From the NCBI GenBank assembly GCA_047967505.1, contig CM106538.1: a stretch of DNA of 64,000 nucleotides; one strand, written 5' to 3'. This DNA comes from Dipteris shenzhenensis. Taxonomy: Eukaryota. The position numbers and the translations under genes are program-made. Positions 22,205 through 46,826 of the stretch are shown piece after piece; within the stretch, counting starts at the first letter, position 1; every line of letters begins with the position of its first letter. Under the pieces are notes generated by a model. The model saw nothing but the letters and a program-made list of their open reading frames with translations. It was not told where the DNA came from and made no database searches.

Positions 22205-23352
22205 TCCTGCCTTGAAGAGCATCTCTGCCACCACACCAAACCTCTTGCCAATAACTAAAAGAAGCCAGTGATAAACTGAGGGAAGACCAGGGAACCTGAT
22301 GAAAACAGAAACTCCCTGCTTGTCCTCTTCAACTGGGTCAAATCCCAGTTGAAAAGGAAACAAAAAGATCCTCCTGTAGCCTAGAAGTAGAAACCCGGCC
22401 TGTAGCAGGTCTCTCGTGACATGCGGGGAATCTAGGCACACCTGAAAGAAACCCCGTCCCAACAAACGAACATCCTTGAGGTGGGGGGCGAGGTCCTGAG
22501 GAAGCGTCGACAACATCCAATCTCTAGCTTGTGACTTGGAGGGGTGTGAGCCATGAATGCGTGCGAAGAGAGTCGTGGAACACTCATGTTCGAAATCCTT
22601 TTGCAACTGCTGTAGCTCGTCTTTTGAAAAAGTGACAGTTCTCGCGGCCGGTGTGAGCGGAGACGGATTGACTGAATGGGAACCCATTCGTCAATCGAGG
22701 TGTGTAGGCCGATTCAAACACAAAATAAAAACTCCGTCTGCTTTCCTGAATCCCAGGAGACCCCTATAGGAGAATAGGGGTAATCCAGATGAAGGAGAGG
22801 GTGAAGAAGAAGGGAGAGAGAAGAAAAAAAACCAGGGGGAGACAGCGGGGAGGAGGGAAGAGGAGGGGAGGATAGGGGAGAGGAGTGGAGGATAGGGGGA
22901 GAAGAGGAGTAGAGGAGAGGGGAAGGAGAAGGGAGGAAAAGCAGCAGCACGCTGCAGCGGGGGGAAAGCAGCAGCAGGAGCGGGGGGGGAGCAGCAGGCT
23001 GCAGTGGGGGGGGGAGCAGCAGCAGGGGCGGGGGGGGGAGGAGGCTGCAGCGCAGGGGGGGGACGCTGCAGCGCGGGGGAAGGGGCAGTGCGGGGGAGAG
23101 GGCAGGTAGGAGGGGGCAGCGAGGAGGGAAGGGAGGGGGCAGGCAGGAGGGAGCAGGAGGAGCAGCAGGGAGCGGGGAGAGAGGCAGCAGGGAGCGGGGA
23201 GAGGAGCAGCAGCAGGAGGGAAGGGAGGGGGCAGCGAAGGGGAGCGGGAGGAGCAGCAGGGAGCGGGGGAGCAGCAGTGAGCGGGGAGAGCAGCAGGGAC
23301 CGAGGAGAGCAGCGGTGAGGAGGGGAACTGGAGGAGCGGGGAGCAGCAGCAG
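22205..23352 (-). mobile_element. LINE family A 5' portion (C-rich leader plus ORF1 N-terminus), 3' part lost
   Basis: ORF 22181-22687 (TFSKDELQQL..GSHPSKSQARDWML) matches ORF1 at 35014. The leader resembles 34300-34980. Confidence 0.9.
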
Positions 23353-26345
23353 TTCTAAATTCTTTGGAAGAGCAGCCTTTATCTGTAAAGGCTCTTTGTC
23401 TTGCTCTAGTCTCCCATTTAGCCAGTTTCCTGTGATCATTTAGTTTAAGACAATGTCTAGCCTGGCATAGTGTTGTTTGCTCATGCATGGACAACGAACG
23501 AAGATAGCTGAGTTCAGTGAGGTCTTGACAAGTGAATTTGGCCTGAGCAATGGTTTCCCTCAGAGTCTTCATGTAAGACTTGCCATAAGCTCTAATCACA
23601 ACTTGCATTTTGGAAACAAAAGAATCCCAGGCATCACAATATGAATATGGTTGCGAGAAGACAGAGAATGAGATGCTTCAGTAACCATGGCCTTGAAAGC
23701 AGCCTGTTGCAAATAGCTATTGTTTACGATCAGATGTCACCTTTGTGGCAATCTCTCATTTGACATAGCATGAAAGGATAGCTGCAACCATAGAGGTGCA
23801 TGATCTGAATGCACTAAGGCATAGTCAATCCACATTTTGCATGTAAAATCCCCATTTTGTTGTGGAGCTACACTATACCATCGATCCAGACGTGCCTGAT
23901 AAGAAGAAATGGCATTATGTTGGAAGGTGTATCCAGGTGACAAAGGCTGCAATTCCTTCCAAAGGTCAACCAAATCCAGATGCATCAGTAATTGGGACCA
24001 TGCATGCCTTTCAGGAGTTAACATATGATCATGTCTGGAGGTATTGTCACCCTGTTGTGGAGCATTATTGAAATCCCCACATATGAAGGCATGATATCTC
24101 CATGGATATTGTTGCATGGCATCCCAAATTGCAGTTCTTTCTCTAGAGGATTGAGGTGCATAAATAGAAGCAAATTCAAACACCTCTCCTCGAATAATGC
24201 ATTGAAGAACAAGCCATCTGCCCTTGTTGTCATTTAAAGCAATAACTGGTTGAAGCTCATGTTTGATCAAAAGGACTACCCCTGAGAAAGAGTGCTCCCC
24301 AGCATAGAAAATATCATAACCACAGTAGTGTCCTGTCTTTCTTGCATAGACGTGTTGGTTGTGTTCTTGTAATGCCACTATGTAAGGCTGAAATCTATTG
24401 ATGTACAGCCACACAGATTTCCATTTCCTATTGTCACACAGCCCCTGGACATTGAGTGTAAAACATTTGATATCAGCAGTCATATTTACAGATATTTATA
24501 GTAATATAACAACTATGTACAGCAGCAAAATTCATGATGTCAGCCCTGCATTTCTATCTCAGGGTCAAGGCCTCTCCCCTCAGAAGAAGTAGCCACCTGA
24601 GGAGTAGACAGCAAAGCAGCAACCTCTTCTTCAGGGAAGAGTGTTCTGCTAGCTGTCACTGCAGGCCATGTGATCCCAATTCCTGTATTGACCTCTGGGG
24701 TGTTTCCACTAGAAGACGCACCATTCCAAGTGCGAGGGGGTGGAAGTCTTTGAGCAGAAATAACTTTTCTTGGACTTTGCCATCCATCAGTTGGAGGTTT
24801 GTGTCCTTTTGTCGAGGGTTGAATAGCAGGAGGTGAATGTGAAAAAACATTCCCATTTGAAACCACTAGAGCTTTGCCTTTATCCTGATTTCCAGAAAAC
24901 TATCTACTATCTTTGTTTTTATTTGCAATGGAGGTAGGAGCATCCTTAGTAGGCATTTGAACCGACAAAGTGGCAGGAGGCATTTTATGCTGATTCATTG
25001 GACACTGTGAAGCCATGTGTCCAAATTTTTTGCACTCAAAACAAGCCCCTGCAAATAATCCCCATTTCAGTTTATAAAAAGCACTTCCCATGTCCACATT
25101 ATTCACCGTGACTGAATAAGAGTCCGGTGTGGGATTTTTAGTATCCCAGAGAATGCAAAATCGATTCGAGTTGCCATTAGGCCGTGGTGGGCAGACCACT
25201 TTGCCTAAAGATGCTGCAATTTTAGGCAAGAGTGAGGCCATGCATTGTGAGAAGTCTACAACTTCAACCCAGACCGGGCATCTGTGTCGGATTAAAGCGT
25301 GAAAATCTCTTGTGGGAGACCATGGCAATACATGCACCATTTGCTGCCCAAAATAGAGAGGCGAATGTTCCAAAAGCATTTGTCTGTGTATCTCATCCAC
25401 CGTGATAACCTCAAAAAACCCCCTGGCTGCATAGTGTACTTTGCAAACAAATGAGCCAGCCACTGTGCGAGTCAACCAGTTGCCTATCTTTGTGGCAGGT
25501 GGCATCTGGCCTGGAAAAAATAATATGACTGTAGTTTTAGCATATTCTTTGACTGGATCCACAATTTCATCTACTTCAACCATGAGGCCAACTGAAGGAA
25601 CCAAGTCTTTCCACTCTTTCCTTGTGTCTGCAAATCCTTCATGCATGACATCATAGACCAGTTGGGCCTCAAGAGTATCATGTACCGGGTCATGCTGACC
25701 CTCAGCTTGCTTTTGCTTCTTGCAATGAACCGAACGCTCCTTTTGAAACGTTTTTTCATAGGAATATTTAGCCATAGCTTTGTAAAAAGTGGAACTCAGA
25801 AAGGAGGTACTTGTAAAAGGGTAGTGGAGTAAAAAAACCAGTCCCAAAAAAATGCCCACAGGAAGCCCACAAAGAAGAGAAAAAGAGTATATTTGTAAAG
25901 AGATAGAAGGGAAAGAGGGATGTAGAGGTCGAGAGAAGATAATAACAGTTTTGTAGAGGAAGAAGAGAGAAAAACCAGTAAAAAAACCCAGATGAACTAT
26001 ATTTCAGAGGAAAAAGGAAGATTTTGGCGATGGGAAAGGTGCAGCAGACCCAAAGACTGAAGAGGAGAAAAAACAGGAGCAAAAGCCTTCAAAATCAGCA
26101 CGTGGATGTAGTCCGGAAGCAAAACCCTGCGTGGAAACGATCCAGGAACCGGAGATGGACTGGGAGCAGCAAAACTGTAGCAAGCGGAAATGTCCGTACA
26201 GGCCGTACACCTGTACGGAATCCGTACGGAGCTCGGACGGGCTGTACGGCTGGTGATAAATGCTCCAGATCACTGGTTTTTGGGCTCTGATGCAGCGCAG
26301 CTGGGAGCTGAGGCTCACGGGCTGGTTGCTTGAGGCTCTAGAGCT
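23353..26345 (-). mobile_element. LINE family B 5' portion: leader, ORF1 and APE endonuclease; RT missing
   Basis: ORF1 at 24540-25859 has RGFFEV, VLPWSP and CFECKKFGHMASQCP, with a premature stop at 24900. The EN at 23737-24483 has TLNVQGL, LQEH, IYAP, GDFN, RLDRW and SDHAP. The EN is homologous to 29761-30525. The 5' end abuts CT/CA repeats. Confidence 0.9.
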
Positions 26346-27397: not shown

Positions 27398-30300
27398 TTT
27401 TTTTTTTTGGGTAATATCTAGTGCATATATTTATATGATCATAAATTTACATGATGGGAGGTCTTTAAAATGGAGAGTATCCCAAAGTTCAGAAGCATAA
27501 AAAGAAAAGCTGTATGCAAGAAGCATCCATATCACCCTCATGGCAGGCATCATACAAGGATTGCCACAATGAGGCTCGGAAAGATTCATATGACTTGTGA
27601 ATCTGCCGACCCAAGTATGCCAAATTATGCTCACTCCAGATTGTCCAAAGAGCCCAATATCGCACCCAAGAGAGAAATAGTGAGTATTGAGACAAAGACT
27701 TCATAAATCTGCCAAAGAGCCAGAAATGTTTCCCAAATCTATGACTCGGGAAACGGATCCGAAGATAATCTGAAATTGTCCTGAGGAGGATCTTAGTACA
27801 CGGGCAGTGCCAAAGCAAATGAATAACAGTCTCTGAAGGAGCCTGACATCTTAAACATGTGGATGATGCAATGCGACGTTTAGCAAGTGTGACCTCCACT
27901 GACAATGTACCTGTCATACATCTCCAAAGAAAAAGTCTTTGTTTCAATGGCATTTTACACTTCCATAACATCGTGAGATTCTTCCGCCACCATGAGAGGG
28001 GCTTCCTTATATGCCACAAAGAAATAGCATATTGCTGAATCCATGGAGCAGGGTGAAGAAGCCTATAGGCTTTGATGGAGGTTAAGGTAGGAAGAGGAAC
28101 AGGATGAGTGCATGTAGCAGAGGGTTGCAATTGCCAATCCGTAAGCCTGTCAGTGTCAGCCACAGGAGGAATAGGTAGAAAAGGATGTAATAAATCAGCA
28201 ATTTTCTTCCATATAGACATATGATGCATTCCCAATGCATAGGAAGCAGTGGCTTGAGGAAAAGATAAGACATATCCCCGATCATCTACCACATCATGTA
28301 TGTATCTAATTCCCAATTTCATGAGATTGTAGGCCTGAACAGGTTCCTGTAAAGCTAGCGGAATTGCAAAAATGGCACTCCAATGAATACTTTCTTTCCT
28401 CATTGAGTTTGTCCCCGAGCAACTATCAGGAGCCCATGTGACCTCAGAAAGTACTTGTTTCCAGTCAAGTATCAGAGCAGTAGAGAAAGGACAGCTAGGT
28501 ATCTCCCCTACAAATCTGCCAATGACAACCTCCCAATGATCAATAGTCCAATGACCATAAGCACAAGTCCTCATGTTGACACACATGGATGCTAGCATAC
28601 AAGTCCATGGCTGTTGTTGGCGGAAAAAAGTATGCAGCATAGTCGCCTTCCTTGCAAGCACATGATATCTTATATTGAGGACATTAAGTCCACCATGCAT
28701 CCTAGGAGAGCATACCATTTCCATCTTCATCAGTCTCAATGCTTTCACAGCAGTTTTTGCCCTCCATAACATCTCCATAGCTTGAGACATGAAGGCGGAA
28801 ATATCCCTGGAGGACCAATGTATCAAAGGCAAATAGAACTGGACATAGGACATTACAATGGACTGTACTATTCTGAGCCTGACATGAAGAGGCAAAGTAG
28901 AAATCGTCCAGTATTATAGTTTATGTTGAAGCCTTTGGAAGATCCATTTTAGCTGTTGCTTCCTGGTGATATGCCATCCTATGGGATATCCCAAATGCCT
29001 GACTACATCTTTGGAATGCACCACCTGACCTAGCCAAAGAATAGAATGCCAATCACATTGTGTCAGGGGAAGTAATTTAGATTTGTCAAAATTGACATGC
29101 AATCCATCTGCCAAACCATACAATGAAAGAGTGGTCATAAGCATGTGAACTTCCCGGGGAGAATTCTTTGGCATAAAGAAGGAATCATCAGCATATGCTT
29201 GTGCCAAAAAAGATGCAGCCCCAGGGATTTTAAGACCAGTCATCTGTCCTGTGTTTGTAAGATGATCAAGATACATCAAAAGGGGATGAGTCGCAATGGC
29301 ATAGAAGAGAGCACTAAGAGGGCAGCCCTGCCTAACTGATCGACCCAATGTCCATGACTGAGACAGATGACACCCAAGAATGCACTGAGAAGTAGAGTTA
29401 GAATAAAGCCAGTAAATTGCATTTGCTATCTTGGGACCAAAGCCTAACTTTGTCATGATTTGAGAGATAAAATCCCATTGAACAGTATCAAATGCCTTAG
29501 CAATATCCACCTGCAATATAAGGACATCTTGATGCAAATACTTAGCATATTCAATTGCAGTCAAGGCATTGGAAATATTATCATGGATTTGTCTTCGCGG
29601 CACAAATCCATACTGATGAGGATGAAGTCCCGCATCCAGTATCCTGTGAAGCCTATGCACAATCATTTTGGTAATGAGTTTGTAAACTACAGGCATCAAA
29701 GTAATAGGCCTCCAATCTGACATATTGTCACATAGATGTTTTTAGACATGAGTTTTTCTTTCAAGTAGCATGCAGACCCTGGAAAAAGGCTTTTGATGAG
29801 CAGCCCTTATCCATGAGGGGCTTCATTCTTGCCCTAATCTGCCATTTGTGCAATTTCCTTTGATCATTAACAGTCAATTTAATCCGAGCATGTGAAAGGG
29901 AATCATTTTCTGATTCAGAGAGAGGCCTTAAATGTGAAAATTCAGTCAATTGTTGTGCTGTCCTTTTTGCCCATTTAACCTCATTCCTCCATTTAGTCAT
30001 ATGCCAGTTTCCATACTCCCTAATGACATTCTGTATACGAGAGACAAAACTGTCCCAGGCATAATCCATGTCCTCCTGGGCATGCAAAGGCAAGGGATGA
30101 ATTGCAAGTCTTATCATTTGCTGGAAATAGTGATGTCGGAAATAAACCTGATTAACATGCAATAATCTACTGGAAAGGGGTGGCAAATCATCCAGTGGCA
30201 TACCAAGGTGCAAATTCATCCATAATGGGGCATGATCTGACAAGCCCAATGAGAAATCTATAAGGAGATGAGGGCTAAAATCTGCATATTGTTGTGGGTA

Positions 30301-30525
30301 AAACAAATACCATCTGTGAAGCCTTGCCCATTGTGTAGTAAGTGCATTATGATGAAAAGTATATCCAGGCACTGATCCTTGGAGAAGCAGCCATAAATCT
30401 TCAGCCTGCACAGAAAGAAGCATGCTATCCCATTTCTGCCTTTCCAATAATAGCATATGAGATCTTGAAGTGGTGTTATCTCTTGGCAGAGGGGAATTAT
30501 CAAAATCTCCACAGATGAATGCACA
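27398..30525 (-). mobile_element. 5'-truncated LINE family B ORF2 (partial EN, RT, zf-RVT) with poly(A)
   Basis: Motifs GDFDN, SDHAP, WRPITL, DIAKAFDTV, RQGCPLS, YADD and GGLNVL. An internal deletion lies near 29725-29760. T-run at 27398-27408. The 5' junction falls in (CA)n. Confidence 0.93.
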
Positions 30526-30726
30526 CTTACACACACACACACACATATACATATATATAAATATAGATATACAATATACATATACATACACATACAAATA
30601 CACATATACATGTACATGTACATACATTGATGTATGCATGTATGCATGCATGTATGTATGTATGTATGTATGTATGTATGCATGTATGTATATATGTATA
30701 ATGCATATGTAAACTGATGGAGTCTC

Positions 30727-30763
<37 letters not shown>

Positions 30764-31046
30764 TGAGCAAGCGAGGAGAGGTGGATGTAGAGGGTGGAAT
30801 GCAGGGTGGAGCAGGGGGTCCAGAAGGGTTCAGCGAGAGGCTGTATGCCATCTGTACAATGGTGCAAGTACACACACATATATACATATATATAAGTATA
30901 GATATACATATACATACACATACAAATACACATATACATGTACATGTACATACATGTATGCATGCATGCATGCATGTATGTATGTATGTATGTATGTATG
31001 CATGTATGTATATATGTATAATACATATGTAAACTGATGGAGTCTC

Positions 31047-31085
<39 letters not shown>

Positions 31086-31190
31086 TGAGCGAGCGAGGAG
31101 AGGTGGATGTAGAGGGTGGAATGCAGGGTGGAGCAGGGGGTCCAGAAGGGGTCAGCGAGAGGCTGTATGCCATTTGTACAATGGTGCAAG
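30526..31190. repeat. ~320-bp tandem duplication of a TA/CA/TATG/(GA)n microsatellite cassette
   Basis: Units ~30530-30868 and ~30870-31190 share aactgatggagtctcat(ga)n...gtacaatggtgcaagt. Confidence 0.88.
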
Positions 31191-32067
31191 TCTTCACACG
31201 CAGTACAGACAGTGGGGCTGGAAGGGGGTGGGATGGGGCACTGATGAGGCAAGAAGGGGTGGGAAACAGGGATCAATTGTGTCAAAGCAGGGGGGGGGGA
31301 CCTGAGGGCTGAAAGAATGTGAAATGGGCTGAAGGAGGCAGAGGTAGAGGTAGGCTGAAGGGGAGGCAGACTAGGGAAACAGTGAGGGAGAGTTGGGTTG
31401 GAGACAAGGGATGGAAGGAGGGAGGAGCATGTTCAGGAGCTGGGGAGCTCAAGATCCTTCATCAAAACCCAAAATCCCTTTTATAAGACCCTGTTGGGAA
31501 GCTAAATTCGAATTCTAGCTTTAGTAGCTGCATGTCTTAAGAATGCTTAGCAAGATCTTGAATGAAAACAAAGCATGGAACATTTTACGTGCACTTTGCT
31601 CCTGAAGAGAGTAAGCTATCAAACCTAATAGCAGGTTCCATTCATTGTCTGGAGTCCATCTTACCACGCGGCCTAAAACATGTTTGCTCAATGGCTTGAA
31701 TTGGGATTTCCTTATTAGTAGTAGGAGAAAGGGTGGCATGCCATCTGACCATGAAGTCTACGTTCAAGATGAGAGGGCCCACTATGTCAGATTATTTTGA
31801 CTATTCCAATCGGACCATGATTTTGCTACTTCCGACAATCTAGGTGTGCTTAACTTGTAGTCTGAGACTTTAGAAAAGTGTCCAAGGTGTCTTTTGGTTA
31901 TGTGAAAATTTTACTAAACCCTCTTATCGTCGCAGATCTCAATTTATTGAGCGTGTTAATATGGAAAAAAAAATTAAGGTATAAGACTTTTTGCTGGGTC
32001 CACAATGTTTTTGTTATGTGCCCAAAATCTACTTAATGTTTTGGACCATTCACGTGTCTGTATGCAG

Positions 32068-32180
32068 GTTAACCTTGGAATGGTTATAAAGGATAACACT
32101 ACTGAGTTTTCCGTACTGGTAGACCATGCTGTAGGTGGCTCAAGCATTGGAAGTGGACAGTTGGAGCTCATGCTACACAG
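32068..32180 (+). CDS. Alpha-mannosidase (GH38) internal exon, VNLGMVIKDNTTEFSVLVDHAVGGSSIGSGQLELMLH(R)
   Basis: Acceptor tatgcag| and donor |gt. The exon is 113 nt, phase 0-2. It continues directly from NYYP and has the conserved 'SVLVD.A.GGSS...GQ.ELMLHR' motif. Confidence 0.93.
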
Positions 32181-32292
32181 GTCGATTATGCAACATATCC
32201 TATTGTCAATGTATAATAAGTTCAAATCGCAGGAACTTGGGTTTGCCCCTGTACAATATGGACATCAAAAGATTCATGTATATATGTAACAG

Positions 32293-32377
32293 GCGTTTGC
32301 TGAACGATGATGGGAGGGGAGTGGGTGAAGCTTTGGATGAGGCTGTTTGTTTGGGCAGTAACTGCGAAGGCTTGACT
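32293..32377 (+). CDS. Alpha-mannosidase (GH38) internal exon, (R)RLLNDDGRGVGEALDEAVCLGSNCEGLT
   Basis: Acceptor taacag| and donor |gtaaga. The exon is 85 nt, phase 2-0. It follows a 112-bp intron and has the conserved 'RRLL.DD.RGVGE.L.E' motif. Confidence 0.93.
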
Positions 32378-33029
32378 GTAAGACACTTTTGATACTGTCT
32401 TAAAAAATATTTACTTGAAAATCAGTGGGAAAGAAAGTCAAGATGTCTACATATATGTACTTAAACGATCGTGTGCTGTAGTAGGCCAGATTCACAAACC
32501 GAGACCACCTGCATTATTCCTTGAAGGATGGGTTCGCAGCTTTTGGTCTCCCAAGGTCTAGTAGTCACGACCATCCGTTTCTTAGAAATGGTTGTATTGT
32601 GTTCATTTTTGAAAAGTGTGAGATGGTTACAGAAGTGGTCCACAAAGGAACCTGGACGATTAGGAATCAACCACTATCAGCTCAGCTGTGTGAACCTTCT
32701 TTTAGTCCATACTGTCCTCCTCCGTCCAAAGCCCCTATCTGGGTGAGTTCCCTGACCTTCCGCTTTTTCTTTTTCCTTAAATTGAGACCCTTTGTTCTCC
32801 GCTGGGCCAATTCCTTGGAGTAGAAACAGAGAAGTTTATCAACCCGAGAGGCAACCCCCAAGCTTGTGTCCTGATGTAATTCAAAAGGACATCTCTTGTG
32901 CCCCTGGCCTTGTCCTTTTTTTTTTTTTTTTTTCATGAAAAAGACTTCTATTAAGTAAGAACAAAAACCCGCGAGAGCAAGCTCAAAGCGGAATACATCA
33001 TGAAATCATGAGGATAATAAAAAACCCCC

Positions 33030-34208
33030 TCAGAGTGAGGTGGAAAGAAACCAAGGCTGAGGCTGAAAGTGCCATCTCAACCCTGTAGTAGATTCAGAGA
33101 AGAAAGGAGAATCCTTCCATTCCCTGAAGAAAGAAGCCCTCCTAGCTGAGGCTGCACGGGAGTCCCCCTGCATACCCGTCCATACGGCCATCAGAGTGTG
33201 TACGATGTCTGTCCAGATACTAGCCAATGTGTGCGAGGGATGAACCTGAGTACCCTCCATAGCCTCTGTGCATCTGGATCTCCAGATATGCCAGGCTGCT
33301 ATGCTCGCTATAATCTCCCAAGAAGTATCCACAGAGGCATGTACAGCTGTAAAAGGACGGTGTGGAACCACATCCAACGAGCAGAGCTCAACCCGATGAT
33401 GTCGAACCGAAATGGCCCGGGAGGAGTCAAGTCCCTCATAGAAAACCTGAGGTCCTGTAAGAGAAAGCCAAGCCACCGAGCCCCAAGTCATAAAGAGTGG
33501 GGAATGGGCAAAGTGACTGAAGATCCTAGCTATCCCCATCCAAATCAATCTCGCCTGTCTGCAATCCCATAAGCAATGCTGAATAGACTCCGAAGTAGAA
33601 AGGCAACGAGGGCAAGTAGGGTCGGCTCCGAATCTGGACCTCCAAAGGTTCACTGCAATCCCTCCATGAATAGAAAGCCAAAAGAAGATAGTGATCTTTC
33701 TATTCCTGTGGGATTTCCAGAGCCTCCTCCAGAAGTACCTCTGCTGATCCGCAATAATACCAAAAGTCTCCCAATGAGGAACTCTGGAGGGTCTCCAGCC
33801 TCTACTACTGAGCTGAAATCTCCTGGCATTACTGACCGTGTAACGAAAGAAGGGGATGGTCTTCTCTCGATGCCCCGCGTCAATCCACTCCCACTCTCCG
33901 GGGTCCCACTGTAAATACTTGATGGGAACTCCTCCATAGAGCCAAAGTCTCCAAGACCCGGTGGAGAGTAACTGGGGGTCAGGGTCTAAGAACCACTCTG
34001 AATCTGATCCCTGCATCAAAAGGCCTACGACCCTGATAGGCTGAAAAGCAGACTCAAGCAATATATCATCTGTAGATCTGAGCAATCTGCCACCATCCTG
34101 GACACTGAAAACCAAAGCATCCTCTTGTGCACCTCGGAAGGCTAAGACCTGAAGTGGAACCCCGCCTCTCGAGAAAGTACCTGCCCAAGTGGAGGTAGTG
34201 AGAGGCAT
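33030..34208 (-). CDS. LINE A ORF2 C-terminal part (zf-RVT)
   Basis: Open 392-aa frame with FWRRLW..IFFWL, CPRCLSTSESIQHCLWDC and WHIWRSRC. It ends just before the 3' UTR and poly(A). Confidence 0.88.
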   Translation of the reverse strand: MPLTTSTWAGTFSRGGVPLQVLAFRGAQEDALVFSVQDGGRLLRSTDDILLESAFQPIRVVGLLMQGSDSEWFLDPDPQLLSTGSWRLWLYGGVPIKYLQWDPGEWEWIDAGHREKTIPFFRYTVSNARRFQLSSRGWRPSRVPHWETFGIIADQQRYFWRRLWKSHRNRKITIFFWLSIHGGIAVNLWRSRFGADPTCPRCLSTSESIQHCLWDCRQARLIWMGIARIFSHFAHSPLFMTWGSVAWLSLTGPQVFYEGLDSSRAISVRHHRVELCSLDVVPHRPFTAVHASVDTSWEIIASIAAWHIWRSRCTEAMEGTQVHPSHTLASIWTDIVHTLMAVWTGMQGDSRAASARRASFFREWKDSPFFSESTTGLRWHFQPQPWFLSTSL

Positions 34209-34299
34209 ATCATCTGTGTCGCCCCACCACTTGCACGTTGTTCACCAGAGGGGGAGTCAAGGACGTGACATTGAAACTGCACAGTGGCACTTTGAGCCT

Positions 34300-34960
34300 G
34301 AGCTGCTGCTCCTCCCCGTTCCCCTGCTGCTCCCCCTCCCTCAGCCCGTCTCTCTCCCCCCTCAGCCTGTCCCTAGCCCCTCCCTGCTGCTCCCCCCCCT
34401 CCCCCCCTGCTGCTCCGCCCCCTCCCCCTGCCTGTCCCTCGCTCCCTCCCTCTGTTCCCTGCTTCCGCCCCCTCCCCCCTGCTGTCCCGCCCCCTCTCCC
34501 TGCCTCCGTCCCCTCCCCCCTGCTGCTCCGCCCCCTCTCCCTGCCTCCGCCCCTCCCCCCTGCTGCTCCCCCCTGCCCCCTGCTGTCCCGCTCCCTCTCC
34601 CTGCCCCCGTCCCCTCCCCCCTGCTGCTCCGCCCCCTCTCCCTGCCTCCGCCCCCTCCCCCCTACTGCTCCCCCTCTCCCCCTGCCTCCGCCCCTTCCCC
34701 CCTGCTGCTCTGCTCCCTGCCTCCGCCCCCTCCCCCTTGCTGTCCCGCCCCCTCCCTTGCTGTCCCGCCCCCTCCCTGCTTGCTCTCCCGCCCCCTCTCT
34801 TCCTCTCACTCCTCCCTTTCTTCTCCTCTCCTTTCCCCTCCCTCCCTCTCAGCTTGCCCCTCTCCCCTCTCAGCCCCAGCCCCTCTCCTCCTTCCCTCCC
34901 CTTCCCCCCTGCTTCCTCCTAGCCTCCTTTCCCCTCCCTTGCCCCTCGCAGCTTTTTTGG
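34300..34960 (+). repeat. C-rich degenerate tandem repeat (CCCCCTGCTGCT-like) forming the LINE A leader
   Basis: Almost devoid of A. A homologous tract lies at 22770-23350 on the opposite strand. Confidence 0.9.
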
Positions 34961-35013
34961 AACGGAAGGAGCTTTTTTTTCTCTTCGAGTCGGCCTCCTC
35001 ACCTTGATTGGCG

Positions 35014-36651
35014 ATGGATTCCCCGTCAGCCAATCCTACTCCATCTCCACCGGCCGCGAAAACTATCACTTTCTCTAAAGACGAGTTGCAGCAGCTCAAG
35101 AAGGATGTAGAGATTGAGTGCTCTACCACTTTGCTAGCACGCATCTTCGGGTCTCACCCTTCCAGATCCCAAGCCAGAGACTGGATGCTTGCGGCTCTCC
35201 CCCCAGACCTCGCTCCTCGATTGGTAGATGTTCACCTTCTGGGACGAGGTTTTTTCCAGGTTGTTTTTGACACTCCAGAGGCTGCGAGCACTATGCTCAA
35301 GGCCGAGTTTTTACACCTGGGACACAGGAAGATCTTCTTTGAAGCCTTTCACCTTGGTTTCGACCCAGTTGAGGCAGATAAGAAATTCTTCTCGCTCTTC
35401 ATCAGGTTCCCCGGGCTTCCCCAGGTTTACCATCGACTTCTTTCTGTTATTGGGGAGCATTTTGGCGCAGTTGCTGAGATCCCACCCCTCCCTGGGTTGC
35501 CATTGACTGCAGCAGAGGCAACCAAGGCTGATGGGGTTCCTAGAGTTAGGGTCCTTTGCAAGGATCCTAACCTCGAGATGGACCACGTCATGATACAGCG
35601 CCCGGATGGTTCCTTTTTTCGCCAAAGAGTGGAGATTTCAGGCAGGCAGGACCAGTGCAGGATTTGCAGGACCTCGAGACACTTTGCCAGGGATTGTCCC
35701 AGGAAGAAGAAAAGGCCTAAGAAGGCCTCTGGTACAGCTACCGCCTCAGGGCATCGACAGGGGGGACAGGGGGGGGGATTAGACCCGGCACTTGCCCCTC
35801 GACCTCGGCAGAGGGGTGGTACAGGTCCAGCTCCTGCTCCTCATTCTTCACGTGGCGGTCCTGCTCAGTCAGGTGGTGGTACAGGTCCAGTACCTATTCC
35901 TCGGCCTCATCAGGGGGGTGGTACAGGTCCTGCTCCTCGACCCCCACCTCCCTCAGGCACACACGACGCTTTACAGTGGGTTCCAGTACGTGTGCAGGTC
36001 CCTCCTTCAGTTCACGAGGGTACCTTAGTAGACTCTGCTTCACCTCGAGCTGTCCTTCCTGTCTCACCTTGCACAGTCCGAGACGCTGAAGCTTCGACCT
36101 CCTCCCCAGTTGCAGCTTCTTCCTTAGATCCAGCACTGCCAGATGTTCCTCTTGAGGATGGAGAGATTTCCGCGGCTGGGCAGACACCGGGTAGAGAGCC
36201 TTCCTCACTCCCTCCCTTGGACAGGGGGAAGGGGATAGCTTACACTGTTGATCCTCTTCCCTCACAAGGGATCCTTCGTACTCCGGTGTCTGGATTGCTC
36301 CACAGGAACTCGTTTTCAGCCTTGGCAGAGAGTTCAGATTTCCCAGAGGAGGAGTTTGTGCCCGCTACTTTTGGGGAGCCAGTGGTTGGATTTCCTATTG
36401 ACAGGGCTTCTTCTTCAGGTGCCAGGATTCTTTCCCCTATTGACTTTCTCCACTGGGTTCCTTCCCTCCTTCCAGGAGGTCTTTCCCTGTTGAGGGGTTT
36501 GTTTCCGCCACTAGGTCGGGTAAGGTGTTCCACTCTACATCCTCCCGTCGATGAGGATTATCAGTTGGAGCCTAGGTGGCGTCCCACATCGCCGCCGCAG
36601 ACAGCTGATCCGGGATCAGCTTCATCCAGGTGTTACTGGGGGTCCCATTGA
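35014..36651 (+). CDS. LINE A ORF1 (DUF4283-like plus CCHC knuckle, Pro/Gly-rich tail)
   Basis: LGRGFFQV, FIRFPGLP and CRICRTSRHFARDCP motifs. It overlaps the ORF2 start by ~100 nt, so the true stop may have been altered. Confidence 0.88.
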   Translation: MDSPSANPTPSPPAAKTITFSKDELQQLKKDVEIECSTTLLARIFGSHPSRSQARDWMLAALPPDLAPRLVDVHLLGRGFFQVVFDTPEAASTMLKAEFLHLGHRKIFFEAFHLGFDPVEADKKFFSLFIRFPGLPQVYHRLLSVIGEHFGAVAEIPPLPGLPLTAAEATKADGVPRVRVLCKDPNLEMDHVMIQRPDGSFFRQRVEISGRQDQCRICRTSRHFARDCPRKKKRPKKASGTATASGHRQGGQGGGLDPALAPRPRQRGGTGPAPAPHSSRGGPAQSGGGTGPVPIPRPHQGGGTGPAPRPPPPSGTHDALQWVPVRVQVPPSVHEGTLVDSASPRAVLPVSPCTVRDAEASTSSPVAASSLDPALPDVPLEDGEISAAGQTPGREPSSLPPLDRGKGIAYTVDPLPSQGILRTPVSGLLHRNSFSALAESSDFPEEEFVPATFGEPVVGFPIDRASSSGARILSPIDFLHWVPSLLPGGLSLLRGLFPPLGRVRCSTLHPPVDEDYQLEPRWRPTSPPQTADPGSASSRCYWGSH

Positions 36652-39600
36652 TATATTATTTATTCAAGAGCACAAGCTGGATTATAGAGATTGTGCCAAG
36701 TCAGGCAAGTTACTTTCAGGACATACTTTTTGGTCGCCTGCATTGGGCACTAGGGGAGGCACTTCTATTTCAGTTTCGCAGTCGGTTCTCCCCTTAGTTG
36801 TTGGGCACGGAGTCATTATCCCCTCTAGAGCTCAGTGGATTATTCTCTTGAATGGAGGGCGTAAGGTTGGCTTCCTCAACCTATATGCCTCCAACATTAG
36901 AGGGGAACATGTCCTTATGTGGAAGACTTTGCTCTCCTGGGCCCCCATTGTGGATTCTTGGGTGATTGGAGGTGACTTTAACATGGTCGAGTTACCTTCA
37001 GACAAAAAAGGGGGTAGAGAAGGCGGACTTCACTCTTTGGAGAGAGCAGCTTGGGATGCCTTCCTTTTCCATTTCTGTGGCAGAGATACTTGGTGTGATG
37101 ATGCCTTTCTTATTCAGCCACAGTCCCTCCTGTTCTCTTGGTCGAACAGGAGGCAACAGATGCCTATTCATGCACGCATTGACAGATTTTATGTAGATGA
37201 CTGGGCACTAGACAGAGGTGGATCGGTATGCATTGCTGCGGGGGTTTCCACCTCAGACCATTTTCCTGTTGTTCTGGCTATCTCAGAGCCTCACTTGAGA
37301 GGCCGATCTGCCAGCATCAGGATCCCAGATGCCTTTTACACAGAGGAGGACCTTACAGAGGCAGCCCTACGGGTATGGTTTGCTCATGTCCAGGGAGGGC
37401 AGCCACATCCTTCACATTTAGCCGCTGCCCTCTCTGGTATTAGCGACTTTTACTGCTCAGTTGCTTCTACCAGGAGACGAGATATTCTCAGACGTGAGAT
37501 TGGTGTTCGCCAGCAGTTAGCAGCTTTGCAAAGGGAAGAGCAGAAACGGCCTTCAGATGCTTGGATTCAGGAGCGCCTTGCTGCAGCGAGGGCTCATCTG
37601 CAGTTATTGCTTGATCAGAGAGCAGAGTATGCCTTTCATGCACGGGAGTCCTTCTGGATTCAGATGGGTGGTAGAGTCAATAAACACTTCTTCTCTACTC
37701 TTGGCCCTAGACATAGTAGAGAGAGTGTATCTCAGCTTATTGACTCACATGGGGTTTTACAGACAGAGCCAGATGACGTCTTACGCATAGCTTCAGATTT
37801 CTATGCCACCCTCCTTACTGCTGATCCTGAGACACACGATATAGAGGATGCTAGACAGGCTATTTGGCAGAGTATCCCAGTGTTGGTGAATCCGGATATG
37901 CATGTTCTACTTGACGCACCTTTCACCAACACAGAGTTCAGGACTGCACTTTCAGCCCTTCACAAGGGCAAGTGCCCAGGTTTAGATGGCCTCACCCCGT
38001 CTTTTTTCATTGCATTTTGGGATATGATTGGAGACTATATTACTTCAGCCATGCAGGCCATTTGGGACTCTGGCGAGATGCCTGAATCGCTTACAGAGGG
38101 CCTCATCCACCTTATCCCAAAAGGAGGTAGCAGAAATTTATTGTCCCAGTGGAGGCCTATCACACTTCTGGGGACTTGTTACAAGATTCTGGCCAAGGCT
38201 ATCAGCCTCCGATTGCAGCCACTTCTCCCTGATCTTATCCACGACACTCAGACGGGATTTGTGCATGGCAGAAGTATTTTTTATAACATTTTTTCTTTCT
38301 GGGAAGCTTCAGAGTGGGCCATGCAGAGTGGCCAAAATCTTGCCATTCTACTGTTGGATTTTGAAAAAGCTTATGACAGAGTAGATTGGAGTTTTTTGGA
38401 GGGCACCCTTCTACGCTTTGGATTCACTGATGTTTGGATCAGAGGTGTTTCCTCTTTGTACAGATCAGCCCATAGCCAGGTACTTATTGGTGGGGTAAGG
38501 GGTGAGAGATTTCAGATTTCGAGATCAGTCCGTCAGGGATGCCCCCTTGCTCCTTTCCTTTTTTTATTCGTGGCCGAAGCTATGAGCATCTATGTTAGAT
38601 CTCAAGATGACATCTTTGGGCTGAGACTTCCTATCAGAAGAGAAGAGGAGCTGCTTGACAGTGAGTTGGCTGATGACACAGCGATTTATTTGGATGCCTC
38701 TCCACAGACATTGACTTCTTTCAGGACAACATTGGATTTATTTTGCTTGGCGGCAGGGGCGCAGATAAATTGGCATAAATCCAATGGCTTTTGGATCAGT
38801 GATGAGGACACTCCAGTTTGGGGACTTGACATAGGGTTCACTTGGGTTCAGAGGGGTGTGCCTATCAGGTATTTGGGCTGCCAGGTCGGCTTGGGTATTT
38901 CTACCACGCAGCAGTTTGCTCCCGTGTTGGAGAGCATCAGAAGGAAGCTTCTCTTTTGGAGCTCAGCCAAGCTGGATCTTGCCTCTAGAGTTGTGGTGGT
39001 CAACCAGGTCCTCTTGGCCACGGCCTGGTTTATTTGTTCATGTTGGTGCCGTTCTAGGGACTGCATCATTCAGCTCAGAAGACCGATCAGGAACTTTCTC
39101 TGGAGTGGGCTTGATGGCACAGCAGATGCCTTAGCCAGAGTGGCTTGGGAGACCCTCATCCTCCCTACACAGGATGGGGGTCTCAATATTATTGATCCAG
39201 ATTTACAGTGCAGAGCCTTACTTTGCAAGATAGTGGTGCGAGGACTTATGCCAGGACAAGAACCGTGGAAGGACTTTCTTATCAGCAGCATACAGAGGTG
39301 CACACCTTCCTCAGGAGGAGACTGGATGAGCAGTGTTAGATGGATTTTCACCTCAGCACACCTCAGATCACCTTCTTCCCCTCTCATGGTTGCCATTCTG
39401 AAAGCTTGGGCTAGTTTCAGAAGCTCTCTTCGGAGGATTCCTCCTTCCTCCCGGGAAGAGATTGATAGGCAGCCCATCATGTGGAATGACAGTATTTTAG
39501 ATGATCGTGGCAGACCACTGGGTGCCTCACTCTACATGCAGTGGGCCAGGTGGGAGAGGGGACCTGCTTCTTCTTTGGGATCTTGGAAAGCCTTCCGTAG

Positions 39601-39668
39601 GCTTCCAGAGGAAACCAAGTCAAGGTTGACAGGACATCTCAGAGGGAGTGCAGGGAGGATCTTGCAGA
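36551..39668 (+). CDS. LINE A ORF2 (APE endonuclease plus RT), broken at the inversion breakpoint
   Basis: Motifs IQEHK, GGDFN, RIDRF, SDHFP, CPGLDG, WRPITL, DFEKAYDRV, RQGCPLAP, LADD and YLG. The frame runs on into flanking DNA to 39721. Confidence 0.93.
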
Positions 39669-40778
39669 CTGGCCTGTCCTTTGAGTATGGCAGAAGACAA
39701 TCTTGTTTTGGTTGTAGTTGAGGCTACATTCCATTAGTTGTAGATTAGGAGTGGCCATCAAGTGCCTCAATCCCCGCTAGAGTCTTATCTCAGTTCCAGC
39801 GGTGGATAAGATCAGCGATAGTTATCATGTAAATCTTCAGACTCCCGGGTCTCTATTCGAGCAGTTCCTTTCTCAGAGGTACAGGGGCTCAGGGCATCCG
39901 GATAGGCCGGCTTCAGGGCGGATCACTCGACTTACGATCACATTTTTACACTTAGAGGGATCATTGAGGAGGCCAGACACAGGAGACAGAGAGTATATTG
40001 TTGCTTTGTGGATTTCCGCAAGGCATTTGACACCGTTCCCCGCGCCCAACTCATCAAACGCCTATAGGAGTTAGGCTACGACTCGGTGATTATCTGGGCA
40101 GTAGTAGCTCTCTATGAGCGGGTGACGGGGCAGGTCAGGATTGGCACCAGCTGGAACCCAGAGATCACGAGCACTATCGGAGTCAAACAAGGATGTCCCT
40201 TGTCACCGACTCTATTTGGCCTCTACATCGACGAGCTCGAGACCACCATCAGGACACTCGGAGGTGCAGGCTGCTCTCTTGCGGAGGCTGTTATCCAGAT
40301 TCTCCTTTACGCAGACGATGTAGTACTACTATCCTCTTCTGCTACTGGTCTTCAGTGACACCTAGATGGACTTCAGGTCTTCTGTGATACACATGACTTG
40401 AAGGTCAACCTTGGGAAAACCAAGGTGATGATCTTCAACACTTCCAGACCCGCTATGCATCGAGAGCAGTTCCTCTTCGCCGGTGACCCTGTTGAGATAG
40501 TTGACTCTTACACATACTTGGGCGTTGTCTTCTTAGGCCCGATCTTCACGATGCGCTCGGCGATGCAGGTCAAGATCAATCGGGGATACGCCGCTCTTGC
40601 CAGGCTGGAGCGACAGTGCTACCACTCCCATTGCCAGGACCTGCGGACCAAGTCTCTCCTTTTTGATTCTTTGGTCCGCCCAGCAGGCATGTACGGTAGC
40701 CCTTGGTGGGGAGTCGACCTTTCAGACATAGAGTGGGCTCGAGTCGAGCGCCTACAGATACTAATGTTTGCTCGGATG

Positions 40779-40982
40779 TGTTGGGGTAAAGGCACATTGC
40801 CACCCCTTTTATTAAAGATATGACACCTATGACTGTCTTAAGACAGTCATAGGGTGAAAAACCTAATCCTAATAAAACTTAAGAGTTTGTGGTGTGGCTC
40901 ATCACTTCACACCCGCATCTTGAGTGTCACTCTCTCTCTCACCCTCTCTCTGTTGTTCTTCTCCCTCTGACCTTCCCCTTCA
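40779..40982 (+). repeat. Copia 5' LTR
   Basis: Direct repeat of 46827-47030, followed by the PBS. Confidence 0.96.
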
Positions 40983-42604
40983 ACTGGTATCAGAGCCTCA
41001 CTTCCTCCCTACCCCTGCCTACCTCTCCCTCTACCCCCTCGGGACTTGTGCCCTTTTGGCATTGCGCAAGCAACTAGGGCTGCAGCACGGGACAGCAACG
41101 CGGGGCGGCGAGGTTGTATCGCGGGCAATAGCGCGGGCTGCAGCGGATCTGCGAGCAGGGCAAGGCGGCGCCGAACAGCAACAGCAGCTGCTAGCTGCTA
41201 CAGCTGCGAGCAGGGCAAGGCGGTGCGCACGTACGCGCAAGAAGCGTGGGCGCTGCGCGCAGGCAGCAGCTTGTGATCACGCCATTTCCGTACAGTCGTG
41301 TACGGACGTACGGTCGTCCGTACAACTGTACGGACAGCAGTCGACCGTACCGTACGGATCTCCGTACGGACTGAGGCAAGGGCTGCGTTAGGAATTTCTG
41401 CGTCAGGGAGCTTCATCAGAGATTTGCATTTCGAAAATTTCTTTTTTTTTCTCTTCTTGGATCTGTACCCTGCACAGGTACATCAGGTACTTTGGTACCC
41501 TGCACTAGTACAAAGGTACAGAAAGTACAGCAGGTACATTTTTTTTTGGGAAGAGGAAAGGAGAGAGAGCACTCTGCTCTTCATTCAGGATCATTTTCAG
41601 TTCTCAAAACTGTGTTTTGAAAGTACAGCAAGTACCTTCGTGTCCCTCGTGCTTGAGGTGACTAGTACCACAGTGTGTGGTTGATTGCACAGTTATCTTG
41701 TTTCGGGAAGGTAATGCCTTGATTTTGCAGAGGATTTTTATGCTTTTGCTGAGTGCAAATCTCAGCTTTTGGGTGACATTTTCAAAGGGCTTTTGCCTGG
41801 AAGCTTATGCAGTGTATGCCTTGAGGCAGTGTGGAGCCAGGGAGCCCACATTAGTCTTGTTTCCGCAGTGTACTCAGTGACATTTCTTGCAGGTCACATT
41901 TTGTGTACGACACCTTTTGAAAATCTCAGTTGAGCCACGCTTGGCCAGGGCGCATCGAGTTTACTCGGTCCCTAACTGTCCATCGTTGACAGTGCTCAAA
42001 AGATTTTCTCTTTAGTGTCTGTACGTTGGGATCTGTGTTGTTATTGTGTACACAGGGCTGTTTATGCATTGCATTGTCAGGTGAGTGCCAGGAGAGCGCT
42101 ACATTTTGTATGCTACCTCAGTGTTGAGGTGTTCTTTCACTTGGTACAGGTGTCAAATCAAGGGGCTTTTGCCCAGACTTTGCTTGATAGCACTTGGGTT
42201 ACTGTCAGAGACCTTCAGATGCCTTTTATCCCCTTGGCAGAAGGGTGATTGCTTGGGATTTGTCCCATTTTGCGTTGCAGGTTTGTGACAGGCTGAAGAG
42301 TCTGGAGCTTCTTTTTCAGTGAACAAAACAGTGTATGACAAGTGGTTTATGCATATAAAATCAGTGCAATACCTCATCTAAGGTGGGAGAAGTGATCAGG
42401 ACAGCAGTGTTTTGTGCACGGTACAGTGTGTCAGAAGGTACAGTAACTGGAGGGAATTTTCTGTTTTACTGCAGATTTTTTGACAGTAAAAACAGCACTA
42501 TTGTGAGTGCTCCTGGCTCTTGATAGAGCAGGTTTTTCTGAGAAATCAGAATTTTATTCAGTCTTTTTTGACTTACAGGGAGTCAGGTACTTTCCTTATC
42601 TGAT

Positions 42605-45600
42605 ATGGCATCAGAGGGAAGTGAATCATCAATTCTGAACATAAAGAAGTTGGAAGGGGCACACAATTATGCATTATGGGCAGAACAGTGTTTGAATGTA
42701 CTTCTGCTTAAGAAGATTTGTAAGCCCATAAGGGTGAAGGGTGTCAAGCCATCTGGGATGTCAGATGATGAGTGGGAGGAGCTAGATCTGTCCGCGAGGG
42801 CTGCTATCATGCTTACTCTCAGTGATTCTCTTGTGTACAATGTTCAGGCTGAAAAGACCTCTTATGGTGTATGGCAGAGGCTAGCAAAGTTGTATGCCCA
42901 AAAGAGTTCAGCTAGTAAGGTGTATTGGTTGAAGAAGCTGGTTGATCTTCGCATGAAGGAAGGTAATGAAGGAAGGTACAGCTATGACCTCACACTTGAG
43001 TGAGTTCAATGCCATCTTTACACAGCTGATTGCACAGGGGTTGAACCTTGATGAGGAGTTCAAGGCTACTTTCTTGTTGTGTACCTTTCCTGAGAGTTGG
43101 GACACTTTCAAGACCACCTTGTCTAATTCGAACGTCACTCTTATATATGCTGATGTAGAGAGCTCTCTCCTCATGGAGGAGATGAGCAGGAAAAATAATG
43201 CGGGCAGCAAGTCTTCAAATGCTTTGCAGGTACAGGATAGAGGCAGGACTCAGCAGAAGGGGAGATTTGCTAGTAAGTCCAAATCCCGCAGTCAGTCCCG
43301 TGGCAAAAAGGATATTGAATGCTTTTATTGTGGCAAGAAGGGACATGTGAAGTCTAAGTGCTTCAAGTTTATACGGGATCAGAAAGCCAAGAAGGCTGAA
43401 GCAAAGGATGCAGGCAGTGGAAGCAAAGGCAAAGGCAAGGCCAAGGTAGATGACTTGGATGCAGTGAATGTTGCAGCAGAGGACAGTGACAGTGACAGAC
43501 ATGAGGTATTATGTTCTTCTGCTGTAATTGCACACACATTGGTTATTGATGGCCATGACATGCACATCTGGCTCTTGGATTCAGGTGCTTCTTTTCATGT
43601 TACTCCTCATAAGGAGTGGTTTACTTCTTACACAGGTACTCATGGAGTTGTTCACCTTGGGAACAACTATGCATGTCAGATTGCAGGGATTGGCAGTATA
43701 CAGATAGTATTCCCTGATGGACGGTCATTTATGCTTGATGGTGTTCGCCATGTGCCGCAAATCAAGAAAAATCTGATTAGCACTGGCTTGTTGGATGACA
43801 GTGATTACCACACCACATTTGGGGATTCCAAATGGGTGATTACTGATGGCCAGGTTGTAGTGGCTGAGGGTTATAAGAGTGATACCTTGTACCCTCTTTA
43901 TGTTTCCAGTGTAGGTAATCATGTTGTTGCCATAACCGAGCTGCCAAAGATTTCATTGTGGCATAGCCGGTTGGGACACATGTCCGTTAAAGGAATGCAA
44001 GAACTATCACGTTTGGGTTATCTGCCGTCTCTTTCTTTTTCAGATTTGCCTACTTGTGATCATTGCATATTTGGCAAGCATTCTGTGACTCCTCATAAGA
44101 GGAGAACTCCCCAGAATAGAGCACCGCTTGATCTAGTGCACACTGATTTGTGTGAGATGCCACAGTTATCACTAGGGGGTGCAAAGTATTTTATTACTTT
44201 TATTGATGATGCCACACGTAAAGTGTGGGTCTATTTCTTGAAGCATAAAAGCGATGCCTTAGATGCTTTCAAGAAGTTTGTCGCTCAGGTTGAGAATCGG
44301 ACAGGTCGCAGGCTGAAATGCCTTAGATCCGATAATGGGGTGAGTATGTGTCACATGCTTTTGTGCAGTTTTGCGAAGCTAAGGGCATCAAACAGGAACT
44401 CACAGCCCCTCATAATGCATCTCAAAATTGTGTAAGTGAGCGGATGAATCAAACTATTCAGGAGAAGGTTCGATGTATGTTGTCTTATGCTGCATTGCCC
44501 CATGGCTTTTGGGCAGAAGCCGTGCAAACAGCAGTTCACATTATTAACAGGTCGCCAAACAAGGCTTTGGAGTTGAAAGTGCCAGAGGAGGTGTGGTCTG
44601 GCAAGCCACCCTCATATAAGCACTTGCGTGTGTTTGGCTGCGAGTGCTTTGCTCATATACGCAAAGAACTGCGCACCAAACTGGAGCCAAAGTCTCTCAG
44701 ATGCATCTTCATGGGTTATGGTGACGAAGGTGAAATGGGGTACAGGTTATGGGATCCCGTTAAACGGAAGATTATATGCAGCAATGATGTCATCTTTAAA
44801 GAGGATAGTGTACACAAGGAACCCGTGCAACCTGTGGAATACAGGAGGGTTATTTACGATGATGTTGGACAGCAAAGAATGCCCATTTATATGCAGCAGC
44901 AGGCTGCTGCAGATAGCCCTGTTCAAGAGGGTATACAGGCTGGAAATCAGCCAGATAATTTTGCCAATGATGCACCACTGGATATGCCAGCAGATGGGGC
45001 TGTAGAACAGCCAGATATGGTGGTACAGCCACCCGTCATGCATGACGAACAGGCTGGACAGCAGCCTAATCCGGAACATTTTGTTAGGAGGAGCACCCGT
45101 GTACAACGGCCTCCTGCCAGGTTTGTTCCAGGAGCCAATAATGTGGCTGATTTTATCATGCTGACAGATTGTGGTGAGCCTTCCAGCTTCAAGGAAGCTA
45201 TGGGAAGAACAGAGAAAAGGAAGTGGGAGAAAGCCATGCAATCTGAAATGGACTCCCTACTTCAAAATGATACATGGGACTTGGTGCAGCTACCTGCAGG
45301 CAGAAAGGTTTTGCCATGCAAGTGGGTTTACAAAGTCAAAGTGGATTCAAATGCTTTAGCGAGGTATAAGGCGAGATTGGTTGCCAAGGGATTTAAGCAG
45401 GAGAAGGGCATTGACTTTGATGAGATCTTTTCCCCTGTAGTCAAGATGACTACTTTGAGAGCAGTGTTAGCTCTTGTTGCTCATGAGGACATGGATTTAT
45501 GTCAGATGGATGTGAAGACTGCTTTTCTTCACGGAGATCTCCATGATGAGATCTATATGAGTCAGCCAGAGGGATATGCTGTTAAAGGGAAAGAGCAGCT

Positions 45601-46727
45601 TGTGTGTAAGCTCAAGAGGAGCTTGTATGGACTCAAGCAGGCGCCAAGAGAATGGTACAAGAAGTTTGATGCCTTCATGCAGTCCCAAGGGTATCATAGG
45701 TGTGAGACTGATCATTGTTTGTACACCAAACGGGCAAAGGATGGCAGTTTGATGCTACTCATTCTATATGTGGATGACATGCTGATTGCCAGTAAATCTC
45801 AGCATGAGATTAGTGCTTTAAAGAAACAACTGCATAAGTCTTTTGACATGAAAGACTTGGGTGATGCAAACCATATTCTTGGCATGCGGATTACTCGTGA
45901 CAGGTCCAAGGGACTTTTGTTTCTGTCGCAGAAGGAGTACATTGACAAAGTACTGCAGAGGTTTAAAATGGAGGGGGGGAAGTCTATTAGTACCCCGTTG
46001 CCTCCACATTTAAAACTCAGCAGTAAGGACAGCCCCAGATCAGATGATGATAAGGCTGAAATGGCCAAGGTTCCGTATGCATCTGCAGTTGGTTCTTTGA
46101 TGTATGCCATGGTTGCCACTCGTCCGGATATTGCTTTTGCGGTGGGAGTCATCAGCAGGTATATGGCAAATCCAGGCAAGCGGCACTGGGAAGCAGTGAA
46201 AGGTGTCTTGAGGTATCTCAAGGGTACCAAAGACTTGTGCATATGCTATGGTAGGCAGGATGCATTGGTGCATGGTTTTACAGATTCAGACTATGCAGGG
46301 AATGCAGATAACCGGAAATCTACTACCGGTTATATTTTCACATTTGCAGGAGGTGCTATATCATGGGTGTCTCGGTTGCAGAAATGCGTTGCACTGTCAA
46401 CTACTGAAGCTGAATATGTTGCAGCCACTGAGGCTTGCAAGGAAGCAATATGGCTTACTCGGCTGGTGGGAGATTTGGGCATTACAGGAGATATGCCAAT
46501 TTTGCATTGTGATAGTCAGAGTGCTATCATGTTGGCAAAGAATCCGGTCTTTCATCAAAAGACCAAGCACATAGATGTGAAATATCATTTCATCAGGGAG
46601 GTACTGGAAGACAAGCGACTTGAGCTTGTGAAAGTGCATACTGATGACAATCCTGCAGATTTGCTCACTAAGAGCTTGCCTACAGAGCGGGTTTGCACAT
46701 TGCCGCCACATCATGGGATTAGGATGA
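42605..46727 (+). pseudogene. Copia gag-pol polyprotein with three frameshifts
   Basis: Motifs CFYCGKKGHVKSKC, WLLDSGASFH, WHSRLGH, LRSDNG, YVDDML and TDSDYAG. Frameshifts at 42953-42978 (13-bp duplication), ~44340 (-1 G) and ~46690 (+1 G). Confidence 0.92.
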
Positions 46728-46826
46728 GACCACTCTTATTTTATGGTCTTGTATACAGTAACTGTATATTGCTGTAATTTTTATTCTTTTCTCCCCTTTA
46801 GGCATATTGGCCTTTAGGTGGGAGGT

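Follow-up and report, generated by a model that had tools for sequence, protein, structure and literature searches.

A stretch of 64,000 nucleotides (nt) from contig CM106538.1 of Dipteris shenzhenensis (assembly GCA_047967505.1), here called the window, holds between positions 32904 and 39682 what appears to be a young land-plant L1-type retrotransposon, a long interspersed nuclear element (LINE), deposited by one event in which its initial 5.4 kb came to lie in inverse orientation to the final 1.3 kb. We put the probability of this, and of that one retrotransposition event having been resolved by twin priming on a single RNA molecule, at roughly 0.8. Along the + strand of the window the order is flank, left copy of a target-site duplication, poly(T), the 3′ part of the element reversed, a filler, its 5′ part in sense, and the right copy of the duplication. 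The traits that speak for twin priming are the two opposed segments diverging from an internal junction, the one duplication that encloses them both, and breakpoints that are adjacent in the element.

The left copy of the duplication, CTGGCCTTGTCCTTT, occupies 15 nt (32904-32918), the last three T of which are inseparable from the tail, and the right copy, CTGGCC-TGTCCTTT, occupies 14 nt (39669-39682), neither being assigned a strand. Aligned, they agree in 14 of 15 positions, an indel accounting for the remaining one, and CTGGCCTGTCCTTT (39669-82) starts immediately after the last L1 base, 39668. Apart from the left 15-mer itself, the window has, on either strand, just one site that lies at edit distance 1 or less from it, namely 39669, and random anchored pairs of 15-mers taken from the window were equally alike in 11 of 2,000,000 trials; a looser search, permitting two mismatches, returned one unrelated site where 0.6 were expected by chance. 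Position matters more than these similarity statistics, in that a single duplication encloses both L1 segments, with one copy touching the tail and the other touching the 3′-most base of the inverted segment.

The non-inverted 3′ segment is on the − strand. A run of 18 T at 32916-32933 divides into three that are common to the duplication and 15 that constitute the poly(A) tail (A15, 32919-32933, a T run in window letters). It is preceded, in the sense of the element, by a 3′ untranslated region (UTR) of 96 nt (32934-33029), 87% identical to that of the copy at 2275-2787, and by the C-terminal part of open reading frame (ORF) 2 at 33030-34220, with 396-397 open codons and a stop at 33030-33032. 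The identical 3′ terminus with its A/T run recurs in three further copies of the family, at 2275, ~2961 and 56311 of the window. The open frame proper, 33033-34220, has 396 codons and yields a Pfam match to zf-RVT (E 4e-8), and 34220 as the 5′ limit of the segment is set by a contig joint considered below.

The inverted 5′ segment is on the + strand and comprises a leader, or 5′ UTR, of C-rich tandem repeats (34289-35013), ORF1 (35014-36651; open, 545 codons from its ATG) and codons 1-1039 of ORF2 (36551-39668), also open. ORF1 has a CX2CX4HX4C knuckle, recognized by eye, and a weak DUF4283 match of 24.5 bits, under the Pfam cut-off of 27.2. This part of ORF2 encodes an AP-type endonuclease (Exo_endo_phos, E 2.5e-6) and reverse transcriptase (RT; RVT_1, E 8e-26), and Pfam finds no zf-RVT in it, that domain being present in the − strand part alone. 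Its frame continues for 17 codons into the flank, to 39721, but L1 letters end at 39668.

That the two segments are halves of one element is indicated by relatives of the encoded protein. Searches of a public protein collection gave 41 matches, at most 54% identical over the region searched, in the fern Adiantum (one), in liverwort and in flowering plants. All three ORF2 domains are carried in one protein by six of them, of 1432-1458 residues, and the halves at this locus, 1039 and 397 codons, amount to ~1436. Because of its nearest proteins and these three-domain relatives, the element is a land-plant L1-type LINE, and the features of plant-type members of the L1 clade are in place: an endonuclease-RT ORF2, zf-RVT, an upstream ORF1, a poly(A) tail and a duplication. 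When both halves were positioned on the relatives by pairwise local protein alignment, the N part aligned before the C part without overlap in 10 of 10 full-length or long relatives. On extrapolation to the ends of both parts, the stretch of the relative left between them is nine residues in eight cases and 11 in a ninth, whereas the most distant relative has 21. No inverted repeat of more than 18 nt was found between the two halves.

More direct information on the breakpoints comes from the contigs of three public runs (X1, X2 and X3) out of six listed, aligned to 31500-40900 at 85% likeness, with run X4 giving no alignment; all are repeat contigs, with depth over the L1 body typical of an abundant repeat and with the unique flanks hardly covered. 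In two runs, contigs that stem from other members of the family pass from 39668 to the reverse of 34220 without an intervening letter, the shorter side of the joint being 152 letters in X1 and 56 in X2. The X1 contig deviates from the window at 34172-3, and so derives from a different copy; a contig of X3 (record 22) stops aligning at 39668. Read from these joints, the two breakpoints are direct neighbours in ordinary members of the family, and, as the joints leave nothing between them, the nine-residue gap seen against distant relatives reads as a family trait and not as a loss at the inversion. With all three reading frames open, both halves look young, and near-identical contigs are available for each (2 differences in 334 letters for the N part and 2 in 303 for the C part).

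A preliminary description of the locus, made from its letters, had proposed a single twin-priming insertion in a plant LINE, and the order of parts, the duplication and the adjacent breakpoints bear it out. Its near-perfect duplication with one indel is confirmed and is unique in the window, its view of the halves as complementary agrees with all ten relatives, with the lack of overlap and with the lack of a long inverted repeat, and its + strand part (leader, ORF1 and ~1040 codons of ORF2 lacking zf-RVT) is open for 1039 codons with domains that Pfam supports. The check that it put forward, adjacency of 39668 and ~34215 in a normal member, came out as anticipated in the contigs of two runs. 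The − strand end of ORF2 with poly(A), given as 32916-34215, holds as a segment, but it starts at 34220 instead of ~34215.

Where that description had to be amended further is the inversion junction, which it took to consist of back-to-back halves. Back-to-back they are, but it overlooked that they are separated by 68 nt of non-L1 filler (34221-34288, + strand), recognized from contigs of X1 and X3 in which sequence with 85% or more likeness to 34219-34288 continues without interruption as the RT region of another LINE family (39988 onward). The shorter side of the 34288-to-39988 joint is 70 in X1 and 69 in X3. Bases 34219-34220 fit both neighbours, which limits overlap at the inversion junction to 2 nt or fewer, and the filler has the orientation of the L1 5′ part. 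Its partner LINE has RVT_1 at 40068-40358 and a paralogue at 58793-59194. Against the rest of the window the filler gave, by blastn-short, chance matches of 11-16 nt only, and against the two window copies of the other LINE there was no significant similarity (p 0.25 and 0.06). That a partner of the filler lies 300 bp away needs no special cause, because the family is common and the aligned stretch had one copy of it. The two window copies of this different family, both + strand (39873-40823 and 58793-59194), have RVT_1 with YADD and are ~70% alike as protein; the twin-primed L1 sits just upstream of the copy at 39873-40823, and contigs of the family are abundant in the runs.

The other side of the filler bears on how much of the 5′ segment was kept. 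The leader would start at 34289-34300, with the 68 nt foreign to it, given the contig joint at 34288 and given that the window's one further leader copy, 67% identical and on the − strand from 23355 downward, is homologous from the equivalent of 34300 onward. The inverted part thus appears to reach the 5′ end of the family, as the preliminary description had it in speaking of a complete ~5.4-kb segment, but from 34289-34300 and not from the junction itself. Tandem repeats in the leader extend over ~34330-34872, with periods of 41 and 101 and 74-92% matches; its C-rich units recall the monomeric promoters of mouse L1. The other leader copy belongs to a related subfamily, is accompanied by the first 158 codons of ORF1 (22221-23355, − strand, 67-68% identical) and is situated inside an ORF of yet another LINE, being cut off at 22221; at 22800-23355 it has the same make-up as the C-rich leader. 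A minor feature of the leader start is that 34285-34303 matches, in sense, the last ORF2 codons (33061-33079, − strand) at 17 of 19 positions. The score, 14, is marginal, as 200 shuffles averaged 10.6 and reached 14.5 at most, and the leader start may derive from the 3′ end of an upstream L1.

The series of steps that twin priming would involve here, each of which we infer from the end product, is as follows. The endonuclease would nick the + strand of the window between ...CCTTT and GAGT..., and the exposed T-run would prime on the poly(A) tail, giving a first-strand cDNA of 1.3 kb that extends up to the L1 base now at 34220. Before completion of that synthesis the other strand would be cut 14-15 nt away, and its 3′ end would prime internally on that same RNA molecule, at the directly adjoining base (now 39668), so that the second cDNA would run for 5.4 kb to the 5′ end of the RNA, now at ~34289. 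It would then gain 68 nt from another LINE, most simply by a template switch onto the sense RNA of that element, though 5′ transduction or repair filler would look identical, and the two cDNA ends would be joined, possibly via the 2-nt overlap at 34219-34220. That zero L1 bases were lost at the breakpoints fits one RNA template, with the first cDNA stopping where the second primer engaged the RNA. The sense orientation of the filler fits a template switch of the kind treated in passages of PMC13174262, and the presumed nick, CCTTT/GAGT, resembles the TTTT/A preference of human L1 as given in parts of PMC2837659 and PMC2912911, a preference from which that of this plant family may differ. With its leader, ORF1 and endonuclease-RT part severed from the zf-RVT end, the copy was probably inactive from the moment of insertion.

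Several findings weigh against this account. The junction of 39668 with the duplication shows 0 bases of microhomology, and at the inversion junction filler takes the place of microhomology, with an overlap of at most 2 nt; in passages of PMC2912911, 28 of 605 5′-inverted human L1s (4.6%) are without microhomology at the 5′ junction. The source of the filler can be pinned no further than to sequence elsewhere that abuts the RT of the other LINE. The two copies of the duplication differ by one T, for which a mutation, imprecise fill-in or a wrong consensus call at a TT run could be responsible. Contig coverage of the flanks is poor in all runs, with bins 31500-31813 and 32442-32755 empty and 39664-39977 near zero. 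No contig in the runs joins 32918 to 39683, but with flanks so nearly uncovered this is neutral with respect to both an empty allele and the assembly. A 2023 review (PMC10760644) still calls twin priming a proposed model in need of experimental validation.

A further point on that side is the reading frame. An exact join of 39668 to 34220 puts the two parts of ORF2 one base out of frame, such that the endonuclease/RT frame ends ...CAG AGA CAC AGA TGA, and this TGA precedes by one base the ATG of a 392-codon zf-RVT frame (TGATATG; 39651-39668 with 34206-34220). A join at 39667 is in frame and reads I-L-Q-D where relatives have I-Q-D. The offset could mean that the coordinate is off by one, that the sampled copies are defective, or that the zf-RVT part is expressed from a second frame. 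A composite in which top-strand priming beside the first-strand stop, a jump to the RNA of an unrelated LINE and, given an exact contig joint, a two-frame ORF2 decoded via termination-reinitiation or frameshifting all hold together is one that we consider unlikely.

Among other explanations, the one that accommodates most is a later rearrangement of a conventional full-length − strand insertion, in which two double-strand breaks, one inside ORF2 and the other at the L1 5′ end, were followed by end joining with a flip of 5.4 kb and capture of the 68 nt. It gives the same final order, also predicts zero L1 loss, and is unaffected by the missing microhomology at 39668/39669. Filler DNA is common in plant double-strand break repair, which counts in its favour. 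What makes it improbable is that, in an element of 6.7 kb, a break would by unforced coincidence have to hit, to the base, the point where the L1 5′ end meets the duplication, and that the filler would be left at just one of two rejoined junctions.

Slighter still is the chance that twin priming used two L1 RNAs, with priming at the poly(A) tail of one and at an internal site of the other. An internal priming site without microhomology favours two RNAs, and passages of PMC2837659 propose such 'dual priming' for human loci, but two RNA molecules would not be expected to give directly neighbouring breakpoints. To an assembly artefact, that is a misoriented or chimeric join within a repeated element, we accord a similarly small probability. 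The family is abundant and the junctions have no independent reads that reach unique sequence; against this, a misjoin would not generate duplication copies bordering the poly(A) tail on one side and the truncated ORF2 end on the other, and it would take two or more errors in concert as well as a foreign insert of 68 nt. Two independent adjacent insertions, a 5′-truncated − strand copy and a 3′-truncated + strand copy, might be entertained in a window full of nested and adjacent LINE fragments, but LINE insertions are not 3′-truncated, the + part has no tail, and the neighbouring breakpoints with a single duplication around both parts, and around neither alone, effectively refute the idea. Recombination between two inverted L1 copies was discarded, since it leaves whole hybrid elements and not split ones. 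Separately, a convergent pair of fragments at 6438-6992 was tried as a second case of twin priming and rejected, its orientation being wrong.

With twin priming retained as the preferred explanation, the surroundings of the element can be summarized briefly. Upstream, at 31978-32392 on the + strand, is an exon-like stretch encoding a glycosyl hydrolase 38 C-terminal domain (alpha-mannosidase type, E 7e-8), from which an X3 contig omits 32177-32288, bounded by GT..AG in the manner of a spliced intron; the L1 is ~500 bp downstream of it. No further host-gene exons were found in 81 + strand ORFs scanned, which gave the one glycosyl hydrolase 38 match only; the 81 were drawn from 129 ORFs of at least 45 codons at 20-52 kb by excluding those inside evident transposons. 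The left flank carries a + strand DUF4283 fragment (32485-32823, E 4e-8), which is probably what is left of ORF1 of an older L1, and the right flank carries the RT of the other LINE. By tblastx no paralogue spans both flanks, a result that is neutral as to flank contiguity.

Further afield in the window, a + strand copy of the same family (54802-56650) has ORF2 codons 1-353 and then 424-535. It is interrupted at 55935-56311 by a 377-bp 5′-truncated 3′ end of the family in the same orientation, with an A12 tail, and the host copy lacks ~70 codons there. An older − strand LINE at 27489-31432 has RVT_1 and zf-RVT with one stop between, and after it comes a long short-tandem-repeat stretch that reads YIHT/CMYV in several frames. 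Long + strand open frames at 42572-46774 resemble, on reading their translation by eye, a copia-type gag-protease-integrase.

Twin priming was reportedly put forward by Ostertag and Kazazian in 2001 for 5′-inverted human L1. In the data that passages of later papers provide, it accounts for 18.7% among L1 polymorphic in humans (PMC11484939) and for 30.9% among those specific to human or chimpanzee (PMC2912911); parts of PMC12350158 give additional background on the human situation. The locus here is like the human and chimpanzee cases in having opposed segments of one L1 inside one duplication of 14-15 nt, the human duplication lengths peaking at 14-16 bp in passages of PMC2912911. The likeness extends to poly(A) on the non-inverted 3′ part, to the abutment of the duplication on the 3′-most base of the inverted part, and to breakpoints that are neighbours in the element. 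What differs is that this is a plant-type L1 (zf-RVT, and a DUF4283-like ORF1 with a zinc knuckle) in a land-plant host, that its 5′ junction, unlike most human ones, is without microhomology, that its inversion junction has 68 foreign bases, and that the inverted part is apparently complete to the 5′ end, with the number of L1 bases lost or doubled being 0.

Two other classes of mammalian event are pertinent. Chimeric U6/L1, U3/L1, 28S/L1 and Alu/L1 insertions, in the parts of PMC13174262 and PMC6789731 drawn on here, likewise carry, within the duplication, foreign sequence joined to the L1 5′ end and oriented like the L1, and are ascribed there to RT template switching or RNA ligation. Unlike those, the foreign piece in the present case is 68 nt, comes from a stretch abutting the RT of another LINE and not from a small RNA, and is at an internal junction, and its origin from RNA is presumptive. 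Dual priming and 5′-poly(T) variants of twin priming, as presented in passages of PMC2837659, share with it the action of both target strands as primers, but the loci there have 5′ poly(T) and short or absent non-inverted parts, whereas here the second primer would have engaged inside ORF2 and there is no second tail. No report of twin priming in a plant LINE was found in the titles and abstracts searched, most subscription journals lying outside that coverage. What the locus offers, if its letters are taken at face value, is a known mammalian mechanism in a clean, base-precise instance from a new lineage.

One consequence is practical. Annotation pipelines will split such a locus into two elements, as passages of PMC11484939 relate for human data, and counts of 'full-length' or '3′-truncated' plant LINEs may be distorted likewise. 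Mechanistically, that no base was lost favours a single RNA template, and the foreign 68 nt provide a handle on how the two cDNAs get joined. Twin priming has been inferred almost wholly from mammalian L1, and a plant case suggests that early second-strand cleavage and top-strand priming belong to the L1 machinery generally and not to mammalian cells.

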